DNA from: a virus
Lineage: Duplodnaviria; Heunggongvirae; Uroviricota; Caudoviricetes
IMG/VR virus record: IMGVR_UViG_2718218361_000002
Length of the DNA stretch: 36,421 nucleotides
Direction: 5' to 3' (one strand)
Positions 5,487 to 27,898 of the stretch are shown here, one piece after another. The translations under genes were made by a program, and so were the position numbers. Each line of letters starts with the position of its first letter. Positions within the stretch are counted from its first letter, which is position 1. The notes beneath the pieces were generated by a model. The model worked only from the letters and a program-made list of their open reading frames with translations, searched no databases and was not told the origin of the DNA.

Positions 5487-7752
5487 AGCCTCCGGGCGTT
5501 TTGTCCCTCCGTCAGCATTTGCCGCAGGCACCGGTAAGGCGTTTACCGGTGCTTATGCATGGAACGCGCCACGCGAGGCTGTCGGGCGCGAAAGACCCCT
5601 TACACGTGACGAGATGCGTCAGGTGCAAGGGGTTTTATCCACGATTAACCGTCTGCCTTACTTTTTGCGCTCGCTGTTTACTTCACGCTATGACTACATC
5701 CGGCGCAATAAAAGCCCGGTGCACGGGTTTTATTTCCTCACATCCACTTTTCAGCGTCGTTTATGGCCGCGCATTGAGCGTGTGAATCAGCGCCATGAAA
5801 TGAACACCGACGCGTCGTTGCTGTTTCTGGCAGAGCGCGACCAGTATGCGCGCCTGCCGGGGATGAATGACAAGGAGCTGAAAAAGTTTGCTGCCCGTAT
5901 CTCATCGCAGCTTTTCATGATGTATGAGGAACTCTGCGATGCCTGGGTGGATGCACATGGCGAAAAAGAATCGCTGTTTACGGATGAGGCGCAGGCTCAC
6001 CTCTATGGTCATGTTGCTGGCGCTGCACGTGCTTTCAATATTTCCCCGCTTTACTGGAAAAAATACCGTAAAGGGCAGATGACCACGAGGCAGGCATATT
6101 CTGCCATTGCCCGCCTGTTTAACGATGAGTGGTGGACTCATCAGCTTAAAGGCCAGCGTATGCGCTGGCATGAGGCGTTACTGATTGCTGTCGGGGAGGT
6201 CAATAAAGACCGTTCTCCTTATGCCAGTAAACATGCCATTCGTGATGTGCGTGCGCGCCGCCAGGCAAATCTGGAATTTCTTAAATCGTGTGACCTTGAA
6301 AACAGGGAAACCGGCGAGCGCATCGACCTTATCAGTAAGGTGATGGGCAGTATTTCTAATCCTGAAATTCGCCGGATGGAGCTGATGAACACCATTGCCG
6401 GTATTGAGCGTTACGCCGCCGCAGAGGGTGATGTGGGGATGTTTATCACGCTGACCGCGCCGTCAAAGTATCACCCGACACGTCAGGTCAGAAAAGGCGA
6501 AAGTAAAACCGTTCAGCTTAATCACGGCTGGAACGATGAGGCATTTAATCCAAAGGATGCGCAGCGTTATCTCTGCCGCATCTGGAGCCTGATGCGCACG
6601 GCATTCAAGGATAATGATTTACAGGTCTACGGTTTGCGTGTCGTCGAGCCACACCACGACGGAACGCCGCACTGGCATATGATGCTTTTTTGTAATCCAC
6701 GCCAGCGTAACCAGATTATTGAAATCATGCGTCGTTATGCGCTCAAAGAGGATGGCGACGAAAGAGGAGCCGCGCGAAACCGTTTTCAGGCAAAACACCT
6801 TAACCGGGGCGGTGCTGCGGGATATATCGCGAAATACATCTCAAAAAATATCGACGGCTATGCACTGGATGGTCAGCTCGATAACGATACCGGCAGACCG
6901 CTGAAAGACACTGCTGCGGCTGTTACCGCATGGGCGTCAACGTGGCGTATCCCGCAATTTAAAACGGTTGGCCTGCCGACAATGGGGGCTTACCGTGAAC
7001 TACGCAAACTGCCTCGCGGCGTCAGCATTGCTGATGAGTTTGACGAACGCGTCGAGGCTGTACGCGCCGCCGCAGACAGTGGTGATTTTGCGTTGTATAT
7101 CAGCGCGCAGGGTGGGGCAAATGTCCCGCGCGATTGTCAGACTGTCAGGGTTGCCCGTAGCCCGTCGGATGACGTTAACGAGTACGAGGAAGAAGTCGAG
7201 AGAGTGGTCGGCATTTACGCACCGCATCTCGGCGCGCGTCATATTCATATCACCAGAACCACGGACTGGCGCATTGTGCCGAAAGTGCCGGTCGTTGAGC
7301 CTTTGACTTTAAAAAGCGGCATCGCCGCGCCTCGGAGTCCTGTCAATAACTGTGGAAAGCTCACCGGTGGTGATACTTCGTTACCGGCTCCCACACCTTC
7401 TGAGCGCGCCGCAGCCGTGCTTAATCTGGTTGATGACGGTGTTATCGAATGGAATGACCCGGAGGTCGTGAGGGCGCTCAGGGGCGCATTAAAACACGGC
7501 CTGAGAACACCAAACCGTCAGCAAAGAAACGGAAGCCCGTTAAAACCGAATGAAATAGCGCCATCGGCCAGGCTGACCCGGTCGGAGCGTATGCAAATTA
7601 CCCGTATCCGTGTTGACCTTGCTCAGAACGGCATCTGGCCTCAGCGATGGGAACTTGAGGCGCTGGCGCGTGGAGCAACCGTAAATTATGACGGAAAAAA
7701 ATTCACGTATCTGGTCGCTGATGTGTGGCCGGGGTTCTCGTTACCCATTTGA
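5476..7752 (+). CDS. A: replication initiation protein A (rolling-circle nickase)
   Basis: ORF track 5434..7752; start placed at ATG 5476 (MAVKASGRFVPP...); ~758 aa; contains HWHMMLF (HUH-type motif) and tyrosine-rich GYIAKYISKNIDGY. Confidence 0.9.
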   Translation: MAVKASGRFVPPSAFAAGTGKAFTGAYAWNAPREAVGRERPLTRDEMRQVQGVLSTINRLPYFLRSLFTSRYDYIRRNKSPVHGFYFLTSTFQRRLWPRIERVNQRHEMNTDASLLFLAERDQYARLPGMNDKELKKFAARISSQLFMMYEELCDAWVDAHGEKESLFTDEAQAHLYGHVAGAARAFNISPLYWKKYRKGQMTTRQAYSAIARLFNDEWWTHQLKGQRMRWHEALLIAVGEVNKDRSPYASKHAIRDVRARRQANLEFLKSCDLENRETGERIDLISKVMGSISNPEIRRMELMNTIAGIERYAAAEGDVGMFITLTAPSKYHPTRQVRKGESKTVQLNHGWNDEAFNPKDAQRYLCRIWSLMRTAFKDNDLQVYGLRVVEPHHDGTPHWHMMLFCNPRQRNQIIEIMRRYALKEDGDERGAARNRFQAKHLNRGGAAGYIAKYISKNIDGYALDGQLDNDTGRPLKDTAAAVTAWASTWRIPQFKTVGLPTMGAYRELRKLPRGVSIADEFDERVEAVRAAADSGDFALYISAQGGANVPRDCQTVRVARSPSDDVNEYEEEVERVVGIYAPHLGARHIHITRTTDWRIVPKVPVVEPLTLKSGIAAPRSPVNNCGKLTGGDTSLPAPTPSERAAAVLNLVDDGVIEWNDPEVVRALRGALKHGLRTPNRQQRNGSPLKPNEIAPSARLTRSERMQITRIRVDLAQNGIWPQRWELEALARGATVNYDGKKFTYLVADVWPGFSLPI

Positions 7753-8916: not shown

Positions 8917-10350
8917 ATGAAAAAGCAAAGCGAAATTAACGTAAAAAAATTAGCATCATGGAGATTTTCATTTAAAAACATTGGGTGTATCTCTACAGGA
9001 GAAATTAATGCAAAACCTTTAACGCTTTTATGCGGAAAAAATAATACTGGTAAAACATGGGTTATGTATGGGTTATATGGCTTCCTAAATATGCCATCAC
9101 CATCTTTAAAATTGCCTCAAGTTGCAAATTTTGCCAAAACTCTTCGTGAAAATGGTAAGTTTGAATTAGATGTAATTGAGTGGATAAAAGATAATTTTAC
9201 GTTAATCAAAAGAGAATTTAATAAAGATTCATCTTTAATGCTTAAAGATGTATTCAACACTAATGATAAGGAAATTTTTTCTAATTCAACATTTGACTGG
9301 GTTATAGATGAAGAATCATTAGTATCAAGTGTTTATGAAAAAAAATTGGATGTTAGCCTCGTCATAGGAACCGGCAAAAAAGAAGTAATGCTATTATCCA
9401 AAGATAAAAATAGCAATATCATACAAATGACGCTGCTAGATTCTGCTTTCCCCAGAATTGATGGGTTTATAAACTTAACTCTAAGTCAGTTATTAAAGAT
9501 AGAGTATGATGAAAGCCCAGCATTTTTAATTCCCGCAGAAAGAAATGGCTTGCACCTTTTTTTCAATGAATTAAGTTCCAGAAGAACTGCGTTATTGCAC
9601 CACGCCTCAAAAGAACAGTTCGATCTGAACTCACTATTAATGGATGTAATGAAGTCTAAGTATTCTGCTCCTATAGCAAATTACATAGACTGGCTTAATG
9701 AAATTAAGGTTAATAGGAAAAATAAAAATGGCCAATTTCATAAATTAGCAGAAGAAGTAAAAAAAATAATTTCAGGAAAATATTCAGTTGATCCTGAAGG
9801 GCAGATTTATTTTTCAACGTATAAGAAAGGTAAGACACCTGCAAGTAAAATTGAACTTCATTTATCGTCATCCACTGTTAAAAGTTTGTTTGGCCTGTGG
9901 TTTTATTTAGAGCACCAAGCAAAAACTGGTGATATTTTAATGATTGACGAACCCGAGTTAAATTTACACCCGTCAAATCAGCGAGTAATTGCAAGATTTT
10001 TAGCAAAGCTAGTTAACTCTGGTATTCGGGTTATTGTTAGTACTCACAGTGATTATTTTGTAAAAGAAATCAATAGCTTGATTATGTTGCATGGCGTTTC
10101 TGAAAATATGATTGAAAAACGAAACGCTATCATGCAGAAGCAAGGGATTAGCATCGACTCAATTTTAGACTCTAACCTAGTCGCTGCGTATCTATTTGAT
10201 AATGGCTCAGTCAATGAAATGCAGAAGTCAAATGAAGGGATTAATGCTGTAACTTTTGATGAAGTAATTAATGCCATTAATGACGATAATGATGAAATAT
10301 ATTACTCCTTGGTGGAGAATGCCTCTGATAGTGAGGATGTAGATGAGTAA
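8917..10350 (+). CDS. ABC-type (AAA_15/AAA_21-like) ATPase, OLD/AbiLi/AriA/PtuA-like, family unassigned
   Basis: 477 aa; Walker A CGKNNTGKT, signature-like LSSSTVKSLFGL, Walker B DILMIDEPE, H-loop STHSDYF; ~280-aa insertion between Walker A and B; acidic C-terminal tail; SD TAAGGA; AT-rich. Confidence 0.85.
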   Translation: MKKQSEINVKKLASWRFSFKNIGCISTGEINAKPLTLLCGKNNTGKTWVMYGLYGFLNMPSPSLKLPQVANFAKTLRENGKFELDVIEWIKDNFTLIKREFNKDSSLMLKDVFNTNDKEIFSNSTFDWVIDEESLVSSVYEKKLDVSLVIGTGKKEVMLLSKDKNSNIIQMTLLDSAFPRIDGFINLTLSQLLKIEYDESPAFLIPAERNGLHLFFNELSSRRTALLHHASKEQFDLNSLLMDVMKSKYSAPIANYIDWLNEIKVNRKNKNGQFHKLAEEVKKIISGKYSVDPEGQIYFSTYKKGKTPASKIELHLSSSTVKSLFGLWFYLEHQAKTGDILMIDEPELNLHPSNQRVIARFLAKLVNSGIRVIVSTHSDYFVKEINSLIMLHGVSENMIEKRNAIMQKQGISIDSILDSNLVAAYLFDNGSVNEMQKSNEGINAVTFDEVINAINDDNDEIYYSLVENASDSEDVDE

Positions 10351-10915
10351 TATTATCAATGTAATACAAAGTTGCATCGATCCTACATTTCAATTAATGC
10401 GAGAGCAGGAATGCTGGGTTGTATGCGAAGAGAACCCAGGTGCTACAAATAAAAAATTACTGGTAAACGGAAATGGTATCTATGGATTTTCGCTAGATTC
10501 TAATAGTATTTCTAAACCAGTCTGGAAATTTTTAAAATCTTCTGCTTTACCAGGAGTATGCTCTGTTTGTGATGGAATTTTTGTTACGTCGCACAAAGAC
10601 GTAGATTATTTTATCGTAATAGATCTCAAATCTTATAACTCAAATGGTGCGGCTAAACAGGTAGTTACTGGCATTCATTTTTGTAAGTGGCTATATTCTG
10701 TATTGAATTTACATGGGCATTTGTCAAGAAAAGTGGATTACATTGGTGTAATAAGTAAATTATCGAGGAGGCAGCAATCAGCTAAAAAAACAACTGTTCG
10801 CTCGCAATTGCCTCCTCCTGAAATTTGCTATAATTATCCTGTGTTTACATTGGAAAACTATAACAGATTATCACTGGCGCATATTTGTGACTTTATATAC
10901 AATATGAAAAAATAA
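10343..10915 (+). CDS. small partner protein (190 aa), possible TOPRIM-like or PD-(D/E)xK-like nuclease, family unassigned
   Basis: ATG overlaps the ATPase stop by 8 nt, with GAGGA SD; motifs VVCEEN, CSVCDG, HKDVDYFIVIDLK; AT-rich. Confidence 0.8.
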   Translation: MSNIINVIQSCIDPTFQLMREQECWVVCEENPGATNKKLLVNGNGIYGFSLDSNSISKPVWKFLKSSALPGVCSVCDGIFVTSHKDVDYFIVIDLKSYNSNGAAKQVVTGIHFCKWLYSVLNLHGHLSRKVDYIGVISKLSRRQQSAKKTTVRSQLPPPEICYNYPVFTLENYNRLSLAHICDFIYNMKK

Positions 10916-19273: not shown

Positions 19274-19703
19274 TGCCGTCACGGTGCTGAAAACCAGTCC
19301 AGAGATGCTGCGGATATTCGTGGATAACGGGAGTATTGCCTCCACGCTGGCGACGTCGCTGTCGTTCGAAAAGCGTTACACGCTCAATGTGATTGTGACC
19401 GACTTTACCGGTGATTTTGACCTGCTCATCGTGCCGGTGCTGGCGTGGCTGCGGGAAAATCAGCCCGACATCATGACCACCGACGAAGGTCAGAAAAAAG
19501 GTTTCACGTTTTATGCAGACATCAACAATGACAGCAGCTTTGATATCAGCATCAGCCTGATGCTGACCGAGCGAACGCTGGTCAGTGAGGTTGACGGTGC
19601 GCTGCATGTGAAGAATATCCCGGAACCTCCGCCGCCGGAGCCAGTCAATCGCCCGATGGAGCTTTATATCAATGGTGAACTGGTGAGCAAGTGGGATGAA
19701 TGA
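19236..19703 (+). CDS. R: tail completion protein R
   Basis: 155 aa, synteny. Confidence 0.9.
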   Translation: MLKPDSLRRALTDAVTVLKTSPEMLRIFVDNGSIASTLATSLSFEKRYTLNVIVTDFTGDFDLLIVPVLAWLRENQPDIMTTDEGQKKGFTFYADINNDSSFDISISLMLTERTLVSEVDGALHVKNIPEPPPPEPVNRPMELYINGELVSKWDE

Positions 19704-20148
19704 GTTTAAGCGTTTTGAAGACCGGCTGACCGGACTGATTGAATCGCTGTCACCGTCTGGGCGTCGGCGACTGAGTGCAGAACTGGCGAAACGTCTGCGG
19801 CAGAGTCAGCAGCGTCGGGTGATGGCACAGAAAGCCCCGGACGGCACACCCTACGCACCACGCCAGCAGCAGAGCGCCAGAAAAAAGACCGGTCGCGTTA
19901 AGCGAAAAATGTTTGCGAAACTTATCACCAGTCGTTTTTTGCATATCCGCGCCAGCCCTGAACAGGCATCAATGGAGTTTTACGGCGGGAAGTCACCGAA
20001 AATCGCCAGTGTGCATCAGTTCGGTCTGTCGGAAGAAACCCGGAAAGACGGTAAGAAAATTGATTATCCGGCGCGTCCTCTGCTTGGCTTTACCGGTGAG
20101 GATGTGCAGATGATTGAAGAGATTATCCTGGCTCACCTGAATCGTTAG
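19696..20148 (+). CDS. S: tail completion protein S
   Basis: 150 aa, synteny. Confidence 0.9.
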   Translation: MNEFKRFEDRLTGLIESLSPSGRRRLSAELAKRLRQSQQRRVMAQKAPDGTPYAPRQQQSARKKTGRVKRKMFAKLITSRFLHIRASPEQASMEFYGGKSPKIASVHQFGLSEETRKDGKKIDYPARPLLGFTGEDVQMIEEIILAHLNR

Positions 20149-20221
20149 ATTTAATCATCTGAGAATATAAGATAGAAATCAATTAATTAGCATAATTTAT
20201 TTTGAATTTTCATGTTAATAA

Positions 20222-20247
20222 ATAAAAGGCCAGTTATTGGCCTTTTA
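20222..20247. terminator. bidirectional rho-independent terminator between convergent genes
   Basis: AAAAGGCCA-gttat-TGGCCTTTT with A-run and T-run flanks, between the S stop and the reverse-strand gene stop. Confidence 0.75.
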
Positions 20248-20250
20248 TCA

Positions 20251-21324
20251 TTACTTTCCATTTTTTAATGAATTGATTAACGATGCTATTTGCTCAATGC
20301 CATCAAATGTAGATGGTATCTTATCATCGGATAGCATGATGTTTGAAAATACTACGTCTTCGAATTTTGAAAGCGCTTCCGGATTGTTTTTCCTTATCTC
20401 TGAGGAATAGTCGCTATAACTCTGAATGAACTGACAAAGGCTCTTTCTGAGTTCTATTTGCATAATCTGAGTTCGTAACGATATATGATTTATCAGTACA
20501 ACTCTAAAGTAATACATGAAAATCAATGTAACTGATGCAAAAGGTAGTGCTGACATAAAATATGTGGCAGCATTTGTCGTTTCGAGAGTTGGTAATTTAT
20601 GCATTCCATAGTATATCAGCGGGGAGGGAATGATTATAGCCAAGATGATAAGAATTATTCTTGATAGCATGATTTCACTTTCTTTCTTTTTGCCAAGTGA
20701 ATTAAAGCCATCAAACAATCCAACAAAATTAAATGCGACCTCATACCCTTTTAATGACTCTTTAATTGACTCTATTTTGGCATGTTGCTCCTTTAAGAAG
20801 GAGTCGCACTTTTCGAAAAATTGACGCCCTTCGTTTAAACTATCAATGTATTTTTTATATGTGTCAACATTGCTGGAGCTTAAAACTTCTTTAACCATTG
20901 CTAATGGCAGTTCTCTAAGAGAAAAGTCTATCTGTGCTCTGCTCCGCTCATCGAATTCATTATAGTTATACAGAGCAAAATCCTTGATGGTTCTTAGTGG
21001 TGAAAAGTGAGACTCTATTTCCGGAGAGAGAATGCTTGGTTCAATGATAAATCTAAAAAAGCAAGTGAATATAAGGTTGATGCTGTTGTTATCTTCCCCC
21101 TTTTCTCTTAAGAAACTTTTAAAGGTGTCGCCAATCATAGCAATGTTGTACTGGGATTTTTTGTCCCAATCTTCAGGGTTTTCGGAAATGAAGTTTATTG
21201 CTTGAGCAATTATTTTGTTTCTGTTTGATTCAAAGTTTGTGCTGGGAGTCAGCGTGTTCAAAAAGACCAGATAATCTTTGAACAATTCTTTCATTGTTTC
21301 TGACGAGAAAAAGTAAGTACTCAT
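20251..21324 (-). CDS. hypothetical two-pass membrane protein (accessory gene at the S-V locus, P2 orf30 position)
   Basis: ORF track 20251..21420; start placed at internal ATG (plus-strand CAT 21322..21324) to avoid overlapping V; ~357 aa; hydrophobic helices IMLSRIILIILAIIIPSPLIYYG and YFMSALPFASVTLIFMYYFRVVLI; AT-rich, opposite to the late genes. Confidence 0.75.
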   Translation of the reverse strand: MSTYFFSSETMKELFKDYLVFLNTLTPSTNFESNRNKIIAQAINFISENPEDWDKKSQYNIAMIGDTFKSFLREKGEDNNSINLIFTCFFRFIIEPSILSPEIESHFSPLRTIKDFALYNYNEFDERSRAQIDFSLRELPLAMVKEVLSSSNVDTYKKYIDSLNEGRQFFEKCDSFLKEQHAKIESIKESLKGYEVAFNFVGLFDGFNSLGKKKESEIMLSRIILIILAIIIPSPLIYYGMHKLPTLETTNAATYFMSALPFASVTLIFMYYFRVVLINHISLRTQIMQIELRKSLCQFIQSYSDYSSEIRKNNPEALSKFEDVVFSNIMLSDDKIPSTFDGIEQIASLINSLKNGK

Positions 21325-21410
21325 AATGGATTTTGTTGTCCCTTGTTGTTCTGTGCACCAGAAATCGTGGTGTGATTTACTTCGAGATTGTACAGAATCA
21401 TTATTATCGA

Positions 21411-22040
21411 ATGAATGCACAATACAATGAAATTCTTCGCTTTATACGCAATATGATTCGCACTGGCATTATCGTCGAAACCGACCTTAATGCCGGTCGC
21501 TGCCGTGTGCAGACCGGCGGCATGTGCACCGACTGGCTTCAGTGGCTGACCCATCGCGCTGGGCGTTCGCGCACATGGTGGGCACCTTCCGTGGGGGAAC
21601 AGGTGCTGATTCTGGCCGTGGGCGGTGAACTCGACACGGCGTTCGTTCTGCCGGGGATTTATTCCGGCGATAACCCTGCGCCGTCTGCGTCGGCGGATGC
21701 CCTGCATATCCGTTTCCCTGACGGGGCGGTGATTGAGTATGAACCTGAAACCAGTGCACTCACGGTAAGCGGAATTAAAACGGCCAGCGTGACGGCTTCT
21801 GATTCTGTTACTGCCACGGTACCAGTGGTCACGGTGAAAGCATCAACCCGCGTCACCCTGGACACACCAGAAGTGGTCTGCACTAACAAACTGACTACCG
21901 GCACGCTGGAAGTGCAGAAGGGCGGGACGATGCGCGGCAACATTGAACACACCGGCGGTGAACTCTCATCAAACGGTAAGGTACTGCATACCCACAAACA
22001 CCCCGGCGACAGCGGCGGCACAACCGGGAGTCCTTTATGA
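21411..22040 (+). CDS. V: baseplate spike/assembly protein V
   Basis: ORF track 21333..22040; start at ATG 21411 (MNAQYNEILRFIRNMIRTG...); 209 aa. Confidence 0.9.
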   Translation: MNAQYNEILRFIRNMIRTGIIVETDLNAGRCRVQTGGMCTDWLQWLTHRAGRSRTWWAPSVGEQVLILAVGGELDTAFVLPGIYSGDNPAPSASADALHIRFPDGAVIEYEPETSALTVSGIKTASVTASDSVTATVPVVTVKASTRVTLDTPEVVCTNKLTTGTLEVQKGGTMRGNIEHTGGELSSNGKVLHTHKHPGDSGGTTGSPL

Positions 22041-26671: not shown

Positions 26672-27898
26672 ATGTTACAGTTCAGCTTTGTATCAAATGA
26701 CGTTGTTATGACTTACGACGGTGACAGCGGAGAACAAATAATTTGGGTTTGGGAGAGTTTAAATAAATTTCAAACAGTATGCATTTCACGCATTTTTAAC
26801 TTTCAACTCCAGGACTTGAGAAACCCACCGTCAACCGTTCAGGATTTTAATGATTATGAATATTCCTTTAATTTTGGCACGCTTAATAATGAATACATAA
26901 CAGTTCCGGGACGGATTCTAAGCATTAATCGAGATGTCCTTATACATAAGTCCATCAAGCTTGAAAGGAAAGTATTTGCGTCAGAACGCAACGTCTCCAT
27001 TTTTGGTCGGCTTTCAAAACTACTCGATCACACTAATCCCATCATCATCGGAGGAGATAAGCCGGAAGCTATACCAAAAAGCGTATTCCAGGAGTTGCAA
27101 AGTAAATTCCCCAACACAGGGGAACTGGATCGCTATGCTAATGCAAGGGTTCACGCTATTCTCGCAGGTTATCTTGATGGTATGAAAGATGCTCGCGAAC
27201 GGTATGAACATTACCTAAACAGAAAAACAGTGATCAGAAAAACCGACAAACTGGATTTAGAAGTTTTAAATAAGCTCGAAATTGAGAAATATACACTCAT
27301 AAGAGACATTATCCAGGATGCGTTGAATAACAAAACTAACTTGTCTGAAGATGACTGGCAGAGCCTGATGATACCCTTCATCACATTACTTTTTCCAAAA
27401 TATATCAAGGTCCTCGAGAAGGTTAAAATTTTCGACTATTACTCTAATCCTTCGGCTAAAACAAATCGGTTTATAGACATTGCACTGGTGGATGCAAACG
27501 GCAACCTTGATATCATCGAAGTCAAAAAGCCGTTTGATGATAAGATCCTTCGCAAGACGCCCTATCGCGACAACTATATTCCTACATCAGAACTTAGCGG
27601 CGGTATTATGCAGGCTGAAAAGTATATTTTTCATTTATCTAAATGGGGTGTTAAGGGTGAAAAAGAGCTTACGAATGCCTACAAGAATTCTCTGCCAGCG
27701 GGAATGTGTATTCGTATATCTAACCCAAAAGCCATCATCATTGTCGGGCGCGATCAGATAGCGAACGGTAACATGACCGACGGTCAGTTGCTTGATTTTG
27801 AGATAATCAAACGTAAGTACGCCAACATGATAGACATATTGACGTACGACGACCTGTTGCGTCGACTTAATAATACGATTGAAGCATTGAAAGGTTGA
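26672..27898 (+). CDS. PD-(D/E)xK nuclease-like protein, Shedu/DUF4263-like candidate (accessory gene at the G-FI locus, P2 Z/fun position)
   Basis: 408 aa; SD GAGGAA; C-terminal half has RFIDIALVDANGNLDIIEVKKP (D...D...ExK) followed by AIIIVGRD; AT-rich. Confidence 0.8.
   Translation: MLQFSFVSNDVVMTYDGDSGEQIIWVWESLNKFQTVCISRIFNFQLQDLRNPPSTVQDFNDYEYSFNFGTLNNEYITVPGRILSINRDVLIHKSIKLERKVFASERNVSIFGRLSKLLDHTNPIIIGGDKPEAIPKSVFQELQSKFPNTGELDRYANARVHAILAGYLDGMKDARERYEHYLNRKTVIRKTDKLDLEVLNKLEIEKYTLIRDIIQDALNNKTNLSEDDWQSLMIPFITLLFPKYIKVLEKVKIFDYYSNPSAKTNRFIDIALVDANGNLDIIEVKKPFDDKILRKTPYRDNYIPTSELSGGIMQAEKYIFHLSKWGVKGEKELTNAYKNSLPAGMCIRISNPKAIIIVGRDQIANGNMTDGQLLDFEIIKRKYANMIDILTYDDLLRRLNNTIEALKG

Follow-up and report, generated by a model that had tools for sequence, protein, structure and literature searches.

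Between the tail genes S and V of a P2-like prophage lies an AT-rich gene, oriented against the late operon, whose product is a putative single-gene anti-phage membrane effector produced in the lysogen, a reading to which we assign a probability of roughly 0.4. The gene is accessory ('moron') cargo of the S/V (orf30) variable slot of this prophage; the window, by which we mean the whole stretch of DNA analysed, is 36,421 nucleotides long. That the S/V slot is variable has been recognized for two decades, and the well-studied hotspots of P2 are old/tin and Z/fun. The family found here recurs in the slot among divergent Peduoviridae and is also large and dispersed outside phages. If the protein blocks phages, it represents a compact one-gene defence of ~1.1 kb whose fold is new, S/V becomes a third defence slot of P2, and phage morons are tied to the integron cassette pool; if it does not, it provides a useful counter-example to guilt-by-slot reasoning.

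The S/V slot and its exchanged cassette

The S/V slot is one of three loci in P2-like phages that have long been known for horizontally acquired genes. Its layout in the window is as follows:

19696..20148, plus strand: P2 gene S (tail completion), the left flank
20149..21446, unstranded: swapped cassette, beginning around the stop codon of S and reaching 36 nt into V (blastn breakpoints 20148-20153 and 21447)
20222..20248, both strands: hairpin with an 11-bp stem where S and the membrane-protein gene converge, terminator-like on either strand
20251..21324, minus strand: coding sequence of a two-pass inner-membrane protein of the PHROG 9373 family (ORF list; 349 homologues)
21325..21410, unstranded: divergent intergenic region of 86 nt between the membrane-protein gene (minus) and V (plus)
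21411..22040, plus strand: P2 gene V (baseplate spike), the right flank

The original prediction described an AT-rich reverse reading frame of about 357 aa between S and V, running against the late operon, and this description is borne out. The 1074-nt ORF at 20251..21324 on the minus strand encodes 357 aa plus stop from an ATG at 21324, and an alternative GTG-extended reading reaches 21420 and yields 389 aa. The ATG is favoured over the GTG, since homologues are 353-358 aa long and F6 is invariant in the family. RefSeq annotates the full 1074 nt in three records and a start at M11 in one. The GC content of the gene is 0.349, against 0.51 for the remaining window and 0.55-0.60 for the adjacent genes.

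Alignment with P2 (AF063097) recovers the order S, terminator, reverse gene and V, which confirms the earlier placement of the ORF at the P2 orf30 locus. The flanking S and V share 96-97% identity with P2, as the flanks do with Wphi; within the cassette (20149..21446), megablast and word-11 blastn detect zero similarity to P2 or Wphi. Codons 1 to ~12 of V are unlike those of P2 and resemble a Citrobacter phage bearing the same gene family. On the evidence of sequence, the window copy is phage cargo exchanged through recombination in S and V, and not an integron cassette. Wphi, pro483 and fiAA91-ss have nothing in the slot, and P2 has orf30 there. Presence, absence and replacement among near-identical phages, together with an atypical base composition, are among the marks of a moron, and these are found here.

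The association with the slot extends well beyond this prophage. In IMG/VR, P2-like S and/or V adjoin a relative of the gene in 74 of the 80 fetched loci, and both do so in 68; S at these loci can be down to 40% identical, and wherever both flanks are present the gene, with one exception, runs antiparallel to S and V. Its distribution in E. coli is patchy (60/5426 genomes); E. coli S21 and H14 match a 1.3-kb query spanning the cassette (window 20150-21450) at 100%. The complete genomes that carry it comprise 60 records with 61 places, every one annotated 'hypothetical protein', and these account for ~3.6% of the 1713 P2-type S places, ~96% being without the gene. In Enterobacter, the gene has been kept beside a 61-aa relic of gene S after decay of the prophage. 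The other two variable slots of the window's prophage contain the defence systems PD-T4-4 A+B (8917-10915) and Shedu SduA (26672-27898). At the related P4 hotspot, published work found that six of eight previously untested cargoes give phage resistance (PMC13586616).

S and the membrane-protein gene converge on the hairpin at 20222..20248, where the calculated folding energy is -14.3 kcal/mol (z -3.7) on the plus strand and -16.2 kcal/mol (z -5.1) on the minus strand, and the U-run that follows the stem is better on the minus than on the plus strand. A bidirectional terminator had been proposed at 20222..20247; the 11-bp hairpin is present, and its action as a terminator in both directions is plausible from the folding and the U-run. 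P2 has an annotated putative terminator of different sequence at the equivalent place. At the opposite end of the gene, the intergenic region 21325..21410 would have to contain two promoters, that of the membrane-protein gene on the minus strand and the late one of V on the plus strand. A consensus scan of these 86 nt gives no minus-strand promoter upstream of the membrane-protein gene, and an exact canonical TGT-N12-ACA late-activator site is absent from the upstream region. Promoter-like sites inside the gene do not exceed the frequency seen in shuffled sequence, and upstream regions aligned across P2-like carriers are conserved solely where the start of V is encoded. By eye, a weak promoter candidate of the form TTCATT-17-TACAAT can be picked out at 21415-21387 on the minus strand.

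Architecture and conservation of the protein

The protein can be divided into six segments, all encoded on the minus strand:

20875..21324, minus strand: N-terminal cytoplasmic seven-helix domain, aa 1-150
20671..20874, minus strand: long helical stalk, aa 151-218 (in the AF2 model, one continuous helix over 153-231)
20602..20670, minus strand: transmembrane helix 1, aa 219-241 (Kyte-Doolittle 19-residue windows up to 2.4)
20569..20601, minus strand: periplasmic loop, short and variable, aa 242-252 (conservation 0.24, the lowest of any segment)
20488..20568, minus strand: transmembrane helix 2, aa 253-279 (invariant P261, Y271, F273 and L277)
20254..20487, minus strand: cytoplasmic juxtamembrane helix and C-tail, aa 280-357 (conservation 0.77 and 0.74, the highest in the protein)

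The two hydrophobic helices of the original prediction are thus found (aa 219-241 and 253-279), and the soluble parts on either side are shorter than it supposed: ~218 aa for the N-terminal part instead of ~240, and ~78 aa for the C-terminal tail instead of ~90. The predicted topology is N-in/C-in, based on charge bias across 45 sequences. The segment around the loop (aa 239-253) measures 13-18 residues family-wide and has a mean K+R of 0.8, compared with 3.0 and 4.1 on the cytoplasmic sides.

The strongly conserved parts all lie on the cytoplasmic side. The stalk ends in a conserved pre-membrane motif, AFNFVGL-x-GF-xx-LG-xx-K, in which N199, F200, L203, G206, F207, L210 and K214 are invariant columns and where aa 198-218 reach a conservation of 0.71. 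Conserved stretches of the C-terminal part are QIELRKSLCQFIQSY, KFEDVIFSNIM and KIPSTFDGIEQ, in that order, and aa 330-357 are modelled by AF2 with a pLDDT <50 despite their strong conservation. Further invariant residues are R274 in the second transmembrane helix and Q286, Q289, R293, C297, E322, D341 and G342 in the C-terminal part. The N-terminal domain is the fastest-evolving part of the protein, and at the domain boundary one allele shows a mosaic structure. It has a confident predicted fold without a structural relative; how the domains are arranged is uncertain, because the pTM of the full-length model is low (0.45). Between E. coli alleles dN/dS is ~0.12, falling to 0-0.04 in the C-tail, with dS at 0.27-0.29, and as measured by these substitution rates the gene is under purifying selection along its whole length.

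The family and its vehicles

The window protein matches PHROG 9373 over its full length (HMM E 2.6e-134, 449 bits; aa 13-356 aligned to positions 7-387 of the 388 in the profile). This PHROG is the protein's own family and is without functional annotation. Searches for known relatives otherwise gave little. The Pfam scan of the protein returned nothing significant and no 2TM-effector domain, the best match being DUF3810 with E 0.027 and 14 bits, where the cut-off is 28 bits, and the NCBIfam scan gave a single weak match, to TrbE (14.6 bits against a cut-off of 94). No family in PADLOC-DB v2.0.0, which contains defence and defence-candidate HMMs, matched at E<=1; a PDB sequence-profile search produced no match below E 0.3, and Foldseek of the full model against the PDB produced 0 matches at E<=1e-3. 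Nor did any match exceed the threshold when distant family members and P2 Orf30 were scanned against Pfam. In the literature searched, no paper names the protein accessions or PHROG 9373, and the sources searched assign no function to P2 Orf30 or to the window family.

The family comprises 928 clusters at 50% identity, with a length of ~355 aa throughout, and reaches past phages to chromosomes of several phyla, integron-like arrays and phage-plasmids. Proteobacteria, Campylobacterota, Desulfobacterota, Nitrospirota and Bacteroidota all have members, and some copies are located on chromosomes without nearby phage genes. Of 53 loci drawn from several phyla, 49 have the gene at a lower GC content than its flanks, the mean difference being 14 points, and truncated relics or C-terminal fragments occur in several genomes. 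Swapping of the N-terminus for known domains was considered and rejected, as the full architecture persists even in the relatives furthest removed, among them the protein of the Klebsiella phage-plasmids. All-against-all clustering of neighbours at 53 loci also disposed of a conserved partner gene. Two recurring neighbour clusters, c1 and c2, are probably the histidine kinases/response regulators and the ABC transporters that dominate the Pfam scan of neighbours. At non-phage loci, ~12 of 150 neighbour genes strongly match defence or defence-candidate models; this defence-island signal is weak, since most non-phage neighbours are ordinary (histidine kinases, ABC transporters and housekeeping genes).

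Two further vehicles can be recognized. In Vibrio splendidus and Vibrio sp. TBV020, relatives are single genes set between ~125-nt TAAC...GTTA repeats in same-strand arrays. The arrays at loci L009 and L035 comprise 6-13 TAACAA...GGCGTTA repeats, and their genes all share a strand; at L009 the gene lies between repeat copies at 5851-5974 and 7068-7134. The bottom strand of the Vibrio repeats folds end to end with bulges, in an attC-like manner. Judged from the repeats, the Vibrio relatives share the single-ORF, attC-like, same-strand layout of integron gene cassettes, whereas the window copy does not. Integron cassettes are reported reservoirs of defence genes (bioRxiv 10.1101/2024.07.02.601719). 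In Klebsiella phage-plasmids, a relative is present in reverse orientation.

Possible functions and comparison with known systems

A role in superinfection exclusion or abortive infection, as originally suggested, may be inferred from context, namely the defence-filled sister slots, mobility, AT-richness and purifying selection. Several other explanations have to be set beside it. The gene could encode a host-fitness or membrane-physiology factor that is unrelated to phages and spread by mobile elements, acting by lysogenic conversion in stress, signalling or envelope upkeep; we consider this unlikely, since the gene is patchy in E. coli, systematically AT-rich relative to its host and found as truncated relics, and since it keeps strictly to a phage slot and the other two variable slots of this prophage hold defence systems. 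Superinfection exclusion at the DNA-entry step, in which an inner-membrane protein stops genome injection and the cell survives, would follow the genomic logic of the HK97 gp15 moron: a prophage inner-membrane protein is encoded among tail genes, opposite to the late operon. The slot elsewhere also houses non-homologous membrane proteins (P2 Orf30 and the membrane ORFs of loci L104 and L117). However, only 13-18 residues face the periplasm and these are the least conserved, the strongly conserved parts are all cytoplasmic, and a host range as far as Bacteroidota, Campylobacterota and Desulfobacterota, with integron-like arrays besides, is a poor fit to the injection machinery of one phage. We regard entry exclusion as distinctly unlikely, and the predicted topology, like the pattern of conservation, speaks for a mechanism facing the cytoplasm rather than for classical cell-surface exclusion.

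An improbable alternative is a membrane toxin of the selfish or addictive kind, or a silenced hitch-hiking passenger, that brings no gain to lysogen or phage. The gene is AT-rich, horizontally mobile, single and membrane-inserting, a HigB/HigA-like pair occupies the same slot elsewhere, and C-terminal fragments of the family are scattered over several genomes, all of which would suit such an element; the full-length purifying selection, the 355-aa architecture maintained across 928 clusters and the absence of an antitoxin-like conserved neighbour argue otherwise. It is scarcely credible that the protein is a component of phage morphogenesis or lysis, such as a tail-assembly factor or a regulator of the holin/antiholin type. 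It is a small membrane protein whose gene lies a short way downstream of the lysis cassette and has tail genes on either side, but on the strand opposite to the late operon and separated from it by the hairpin, and the gene is absent from the viable phages Wphi, pro483, fiAA91-ss and P2, as from most P2-type slots of E. coli. The family also occurs in integron-like arrays and on chromosomes without phage genes nearby, and no homology to a structural or lysis component was found in Pfam, NCBIfam, PADLOC, PHROG or the PDB (sequence and Foldseek).

The reading as an anti-phage effector can be stated as a mechanism. A stand-alone inner-membrane protein would carry its N-domain on a stalk, followed by a membrane hairpin and a C-module, with both large parts in the cytoplasm. 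The variable N-domain would sense an infection cue and the stalk would relay the signal towards the membrane, where the conserved hairpin and C-module would assemble and dissipate the membrane potential or permeabilize the membrane; the resulting damage would abort the infection. Expression in the lysogen, an anti-phage effect and a division into sensor and effector are what we infer for the protein, and oligomerization and pore formation are purely conjectural. Tentatively, the family as a whole may be a widespread, unnamed single-gene membrane immunity family that combines a new cytoplasmic sensor fold with a conserved two-helix membrane-killing module and uses the P2 S/V slot, integron cassettes and phage-plasmids as its vehicles.

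P2 Orf30, which is annotated as nonessential, is the closest comparison by position. It shares with the window protein the S/V slot, reverse orientation, AT-richness (GC 0.34) and membrane location. The original prediction had left open whether the two are homologous, and the answer is negative: homology to Orf30 (AAD03281) is ruled out by a best BLASTP E of 1.4 and an hhalign profile-profile probability of 0.4%, and P2 is not among the matches when the protein is compared with all phage records by tblastn. Orf30 has three hydrophobic segments in 261 aa, whereas the window protein has two helices in 357 aa and a different membrane layout; the Orf30 family is narrow (5 clusters at 90% identity), in contrast to the 928 clusters at 50% identity of the window family.

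T4 Imm, P22 SieA and HK97 gp15 stop genome injection by the incoming phage without killing the cell; proteins of this type usually act by contacts exposed at the envelope. With morons of the HK97 gp15 type the window protein has in common that an inner-membrane protein gene lies among the tail genes of a temperate phage and is presumably expressed in the lysogen. As they are described, these proteins are set apart from the window protein, which is much larger, with ~300 cytoplasmic residues and a variable periplasmic loop of 13-18 residues, and whose family extends far beyond one phage group. The work on the HK97 gp15 moron is cited in PMC13492144. Transmembrane proteins in anti-phage systems are regarded as suicide effectors (PMC9122126). 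From abortive-infection membrane effectors and known TM effector modules the window protein differs in lacking a PADLOC or Pfam 2TM match and a partner gene; what it shares with them is that a membrane hairpin is joined to a cytoplasmic domain, which may act as a sensor, in a mobile protein borne by a prophage.

The membrane-protein gene and its product

A complete P2-like prophage fills the window between a YegS-like kinase gene and a U32 peptidase gene and carries on its minus strand, between genes S and V, the membrane-protein gene considered here.

Features of the window around the membrane-protein gene
1–900: YegS-like kinase gene, to the left of the prophage
19696–20148: gene S of P2 type, left flank of the membrane-protein gene
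20222–20248: hairpin with an 11-bp stem, 3 bases beyond the membrane-protein stop codon
20251–21324, minus strand: membrane-protein gene, ATG-initiated open reading frame (ORF) of 357 aa
21411–22040: gene V of P2 type, right flank of the membrane-protein gene
21411–21446, plus strand: V segment inside the putative swapped unit, approximately the first 12 codons
35060–36421: U32 peptidase gene, to the right of the prophage

An alternative GTG start gives a 389-aa reading that extends to 21420 and overlaps V; the ATG at 21324 is preferred because homologues are 353–358 aa long and F6 is invariant across the family. The full 1074 nt are annotated in three RefSeq records. For the copy in Escherichia coli 7/2 (L061 1602–2645, WP_223479977), RefSeq places the start at the second methionine, M11, giving 347 aa; ten codons are probably missing from this call, since other records give 357 aa and the family conserves early residues (F6).

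The GC content of the gene is 34.9%, compared with 55–60% in adjoining genes and 51% in the remaining window. The hairpin has a folding energy of -14.3 kcal/mol on the plus strand (z -3.7) and -16.2 kcal/mol on the minus strand (z -5.1). A promoter scan found none for the membrane-protein gene; a weak TTCATT-17-TACAAT, seen by eye only, lies upstream at 21415–21387. Between the start codons of the gene and of V there is an inverted repeat, CACCA-N7-TGGTG (21354–21374, plus strand), listed by the scan as terminator-like, which could instead be a candidate regulator-binding site for divergent promoters.

The protein matches PHROG 9373 (function unknown) over its full length (E 2.6e-134) and has no match in Pfam, NCBIfam or PADLOC-DB v2.0.0; a search of PDB sequences with the family profile found nothing. 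AlphaFold2, given a 45-sequence alignment, returned an all-helical model (pLDDT 79.9, pTM 0.45).

Segments of the protein in the AlphaFold2 model, with the hydrophobic segments
aa 1–150: compact N-terminal domain, pLDDT above 90
aa 153–231: single unbroken helix, extending out of the cytoplasm into membrane span 1
aa 219–241 and 253–279: hydrophobic segments (membrane spans)
between the two long helices: short loop
aa 252–313: second long helix, including the second membrane span
after aa 313: two more helices, the last 28 residues poorly modelled

The original prediction was thus correct in describing a reverse-oriented, AT-rich ORF with two hydrophobic segments, and its domain sizes need small adjustments, from approximately 240 to about 218 aa for the N-terminal region and from approximately 90 to about 78 aa for the C-terminal tail. 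Across the family, lysine plus arginine number 3.0 before span 1, 0.8 in the loop of 13–18 residues and 4.1 after span 2, a charge bias from which both termini are predicted to be cytoplasmic. Conservation is 0.24 in the periplasmic loop, 0.45 in the N-domain and stalk, 0.71 in the motif preceding span 1 (AFNFVGL-x-GF), 0.74 in the C-tail and 0.77 in the juxtamembrane helix; in the spans it follows a helical period of ~100 degrees, indicating one conserved face per helix.

The S/V slot and its defence context

The S and V genes flanking the membrane-protein gene are 96–97% identical to those of P2, Wphi and many further Peduovirus genomes. Similarity to P2 and Wphi ends at 20148–20153 and returns at 21447, 36 nt into V. 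The opening dozen V codons of the window (MNAQYNEILRFIRN...) are unlike the V start of P2 and Wphi (MNTLANIQELARALRN...) and resemble that of a Citrobacter P2-like prophage (MKTQLNEILRLLRN...) with a 50%-identical copy of the membrane-protein gene. Together, this mismatch and this likeness indicate that the exchanged unit comprises the gene, the intergenic region and the beginning of V, and the swapped first ~12 codons place a crossover within V; the unit was probably acquired through recombination in S and V.

At the same slot P2 has orf30, which is likewise reverse-oriented and carries a nonessential annotation, and the slot is empty in Wphi, pro483 and fiAA91-ss. The orf30 locus, the TO region and Z/fun are the three loci of P2-like phages with horizontally acquired genes, and the function of Orf30 is listed as unknown (PMC3091744; PMC6823313). 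The slot is already known; what is new is the membrane-protein family. The other two variable slots of the window prophage hold recognised defence systems.

Defence genes of the window prophage
8917–10350 and 10343–10915, plus strand: PD-T4-4 A and B (E 2.1e-112 and 1.2e-15), in the old/tin hotspot between replication gene A and portal gene Q, with an AAA_15 ATPase as subunit A
26672–27898, plus strand: Shedu SduA (PADLOC E 9.9e-220; Pfam SduA_C), in the Z/fun hotspot downstream of the tail-fibre genes

A recent published survey describes a defence hotspot inside the P2 tail genes and reports phage resistance from six of eight unannotated P4 hotspot cargos (PMC13586616). At non-phage loci the association of the family with defence is weaker than in the phage context: approximately 12 of 150 genes within two positions strongly match defence or defence-candidate models, and most of the 150 are histidine kinases, response regulators, ABC transporters and housekeeping genes.

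Some P2-like viral contigs have 0.9–1.8 kb of added cargo between the membrane-protein gene and S (L122 5053–6906; L133 5044–6862; L104 5192–5860; L117 4500–5270; also L116, L127, L129 and L148). As named from a reading of the sequences, without a domain scan, this cargo includes a 210–293-aa antirepressor-like protein, a HigB/HigA-like pair (119+113 aa), a run of GSTGLRVY repeats and further AT-rich membrane proteins.

Distribution, vehicles and selection of the family

Word-indexed searching yielded 349 relatives of the protein, every one labelled hypothetical. When a profile was run exhaustively against 1.84 billion representatives, 928 clusters matched at E<=1e-3, of which 667 reached E<=1e-30; nearly all of the best 150 of the 928 family representatives are ~355 aa long. 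The 58 family loci in one-genome-per-species contigs come from Gamma- and Betaproteobacteria, Campylobacterota, Desulfobacterota, Nitrospirales and Bacteroidota. Clustering of neighbouring ORFs revealed no conserved partner gene, and at 49 of 53 loci the family gene has a lower GC content than the DNA around it (mean gap 14 points). Open frames of 45–126 aa holding C-terminal fragments alone occur in Halomonas, Aquirhabdus, Mannheimia, Undibacterium and others (L051, L054, L057–L060); these are decayed family copies.

Relatives are encoded on 124 IMG/VR viral contigs. P2-like S and/or V adjoin the relative in 74 of the 80 examined, and both do so in 68; gaps are typically ~99 nt on the V side and 58 nt on the S side, and S identity goes down to 40%. 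S and V lie on the strand opposite to the relative in all 68 except L144, where the relative is between S and V on the same strand, with ~2 kb of additional DNA. In six contigs (L139, L140, L142, L143, L145 and L151) the surroundings of the relative contain neither S nor V of P2 type. The S/V arrangement recurs in two isolated Yersinia phages and in Citrobacter, Erwinia and Pectobacterium prophages. In Enterobacter (L068 5001–6253) a 42%-identical relative is surrounded by ordinary host genes and adjoins a 61-aa remnant of gene S: the P2-like prophage has decayed, and its cargo gene was retained. Contigs from many samples carry this protein.

In Vibrio splendidus and Vibrio sp. TBV020 the family gene (L009 5851–7134; L035 5845–7160) is flanked on both sides by ~125-nt TAAC...GTTA repeats in same-strand, integron-like cassette arrays, with repeats spaced 0.5–2.8 kb apart in L009 and up to ~5 kb in L035. 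The bottom strand of these repeats pairs end to end, like attC sites, and they are attC-like sites of putative chromosomal integrons. Similar repeats occur in Zobellella (L007), and in a metagenome-assembled genome (L005) the relative is bracketed by a different short repeat, GGGTCAAGTCTGC...TTGAC. In Klebsiella phage-plasmids the family gene is reverse-oriented amid replication genes; distant members, among them the 388-aa protein of these phage-plasmids, have the complete architecture.

Among 5426 complete E. coli genomes, 60 carry the gene (61 places); it is always chromosomal, adjoining V and under an annotated 'hypothetical protein' CDS; with P2-type S at 1713 E. coli places, it occupies ~3.6% of slots. 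Between E. coli alleles at dS 0.27–0.29, dN/dS is ~0.12 overall, 0–0.04 in the C-tail and 0.14–0.33 in the N-domain: this is a working protein-coding gene, whose N-domain evolves fastest. The E. coli TUM14771 allele (L072 202–1275) differs from that of the window at 37 nucleotides in the N-domain and four elsewhere, a mosaic pattern pointing to recombination within the gene close to the domain boundary. A literature search found no paper on the family, which is without name, domain entry or structural relative, yet is large, widespread and on three kinds of mobile vehicle.

Possible function and comparison with P2 Orf30

Prophage membrane proteins that defend the lysogen are a standard idea. 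We tentatively regard the window protein as a candidate single-gene anti-phage membrane effector made in the lysogen, with a probability of roughly 40%. The variable cytoplasmic N-domain would detect an infection cue, the stalk would pass the signal on, and the conserved hairpin, juxtamembrane helix and C-tail would come together and breach or depolarise the inner membrane. A fitness role unrelated to phages is unlikely. Classical exclusion at DNA entry is doubtful, and less likely than an anti-phage effector, because the protein has almost no periplasmic part and what is exposed is not conserved. A selfish toxin is less probable still, and a role in structure or lysis is very improbable.

The original prediction correctly placed the gene at the orf30 position and left homology to Orf30 open; the answer is negative. 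Sequence comparison gives none (BLASTP E 1.4), P2 was not among the matches of a tblastn search over 50,697 phage records, and profile–profile comparison of the two families gives a probability of 0.4%. Orf30 (L001 1021–1806) belongs to a very narrow family of five clusters and is instead an analogue, likewise AT-rich (34% GC) and with three hydrophobic segments; the slot thus houses unrelated membrane proteins in different phages.
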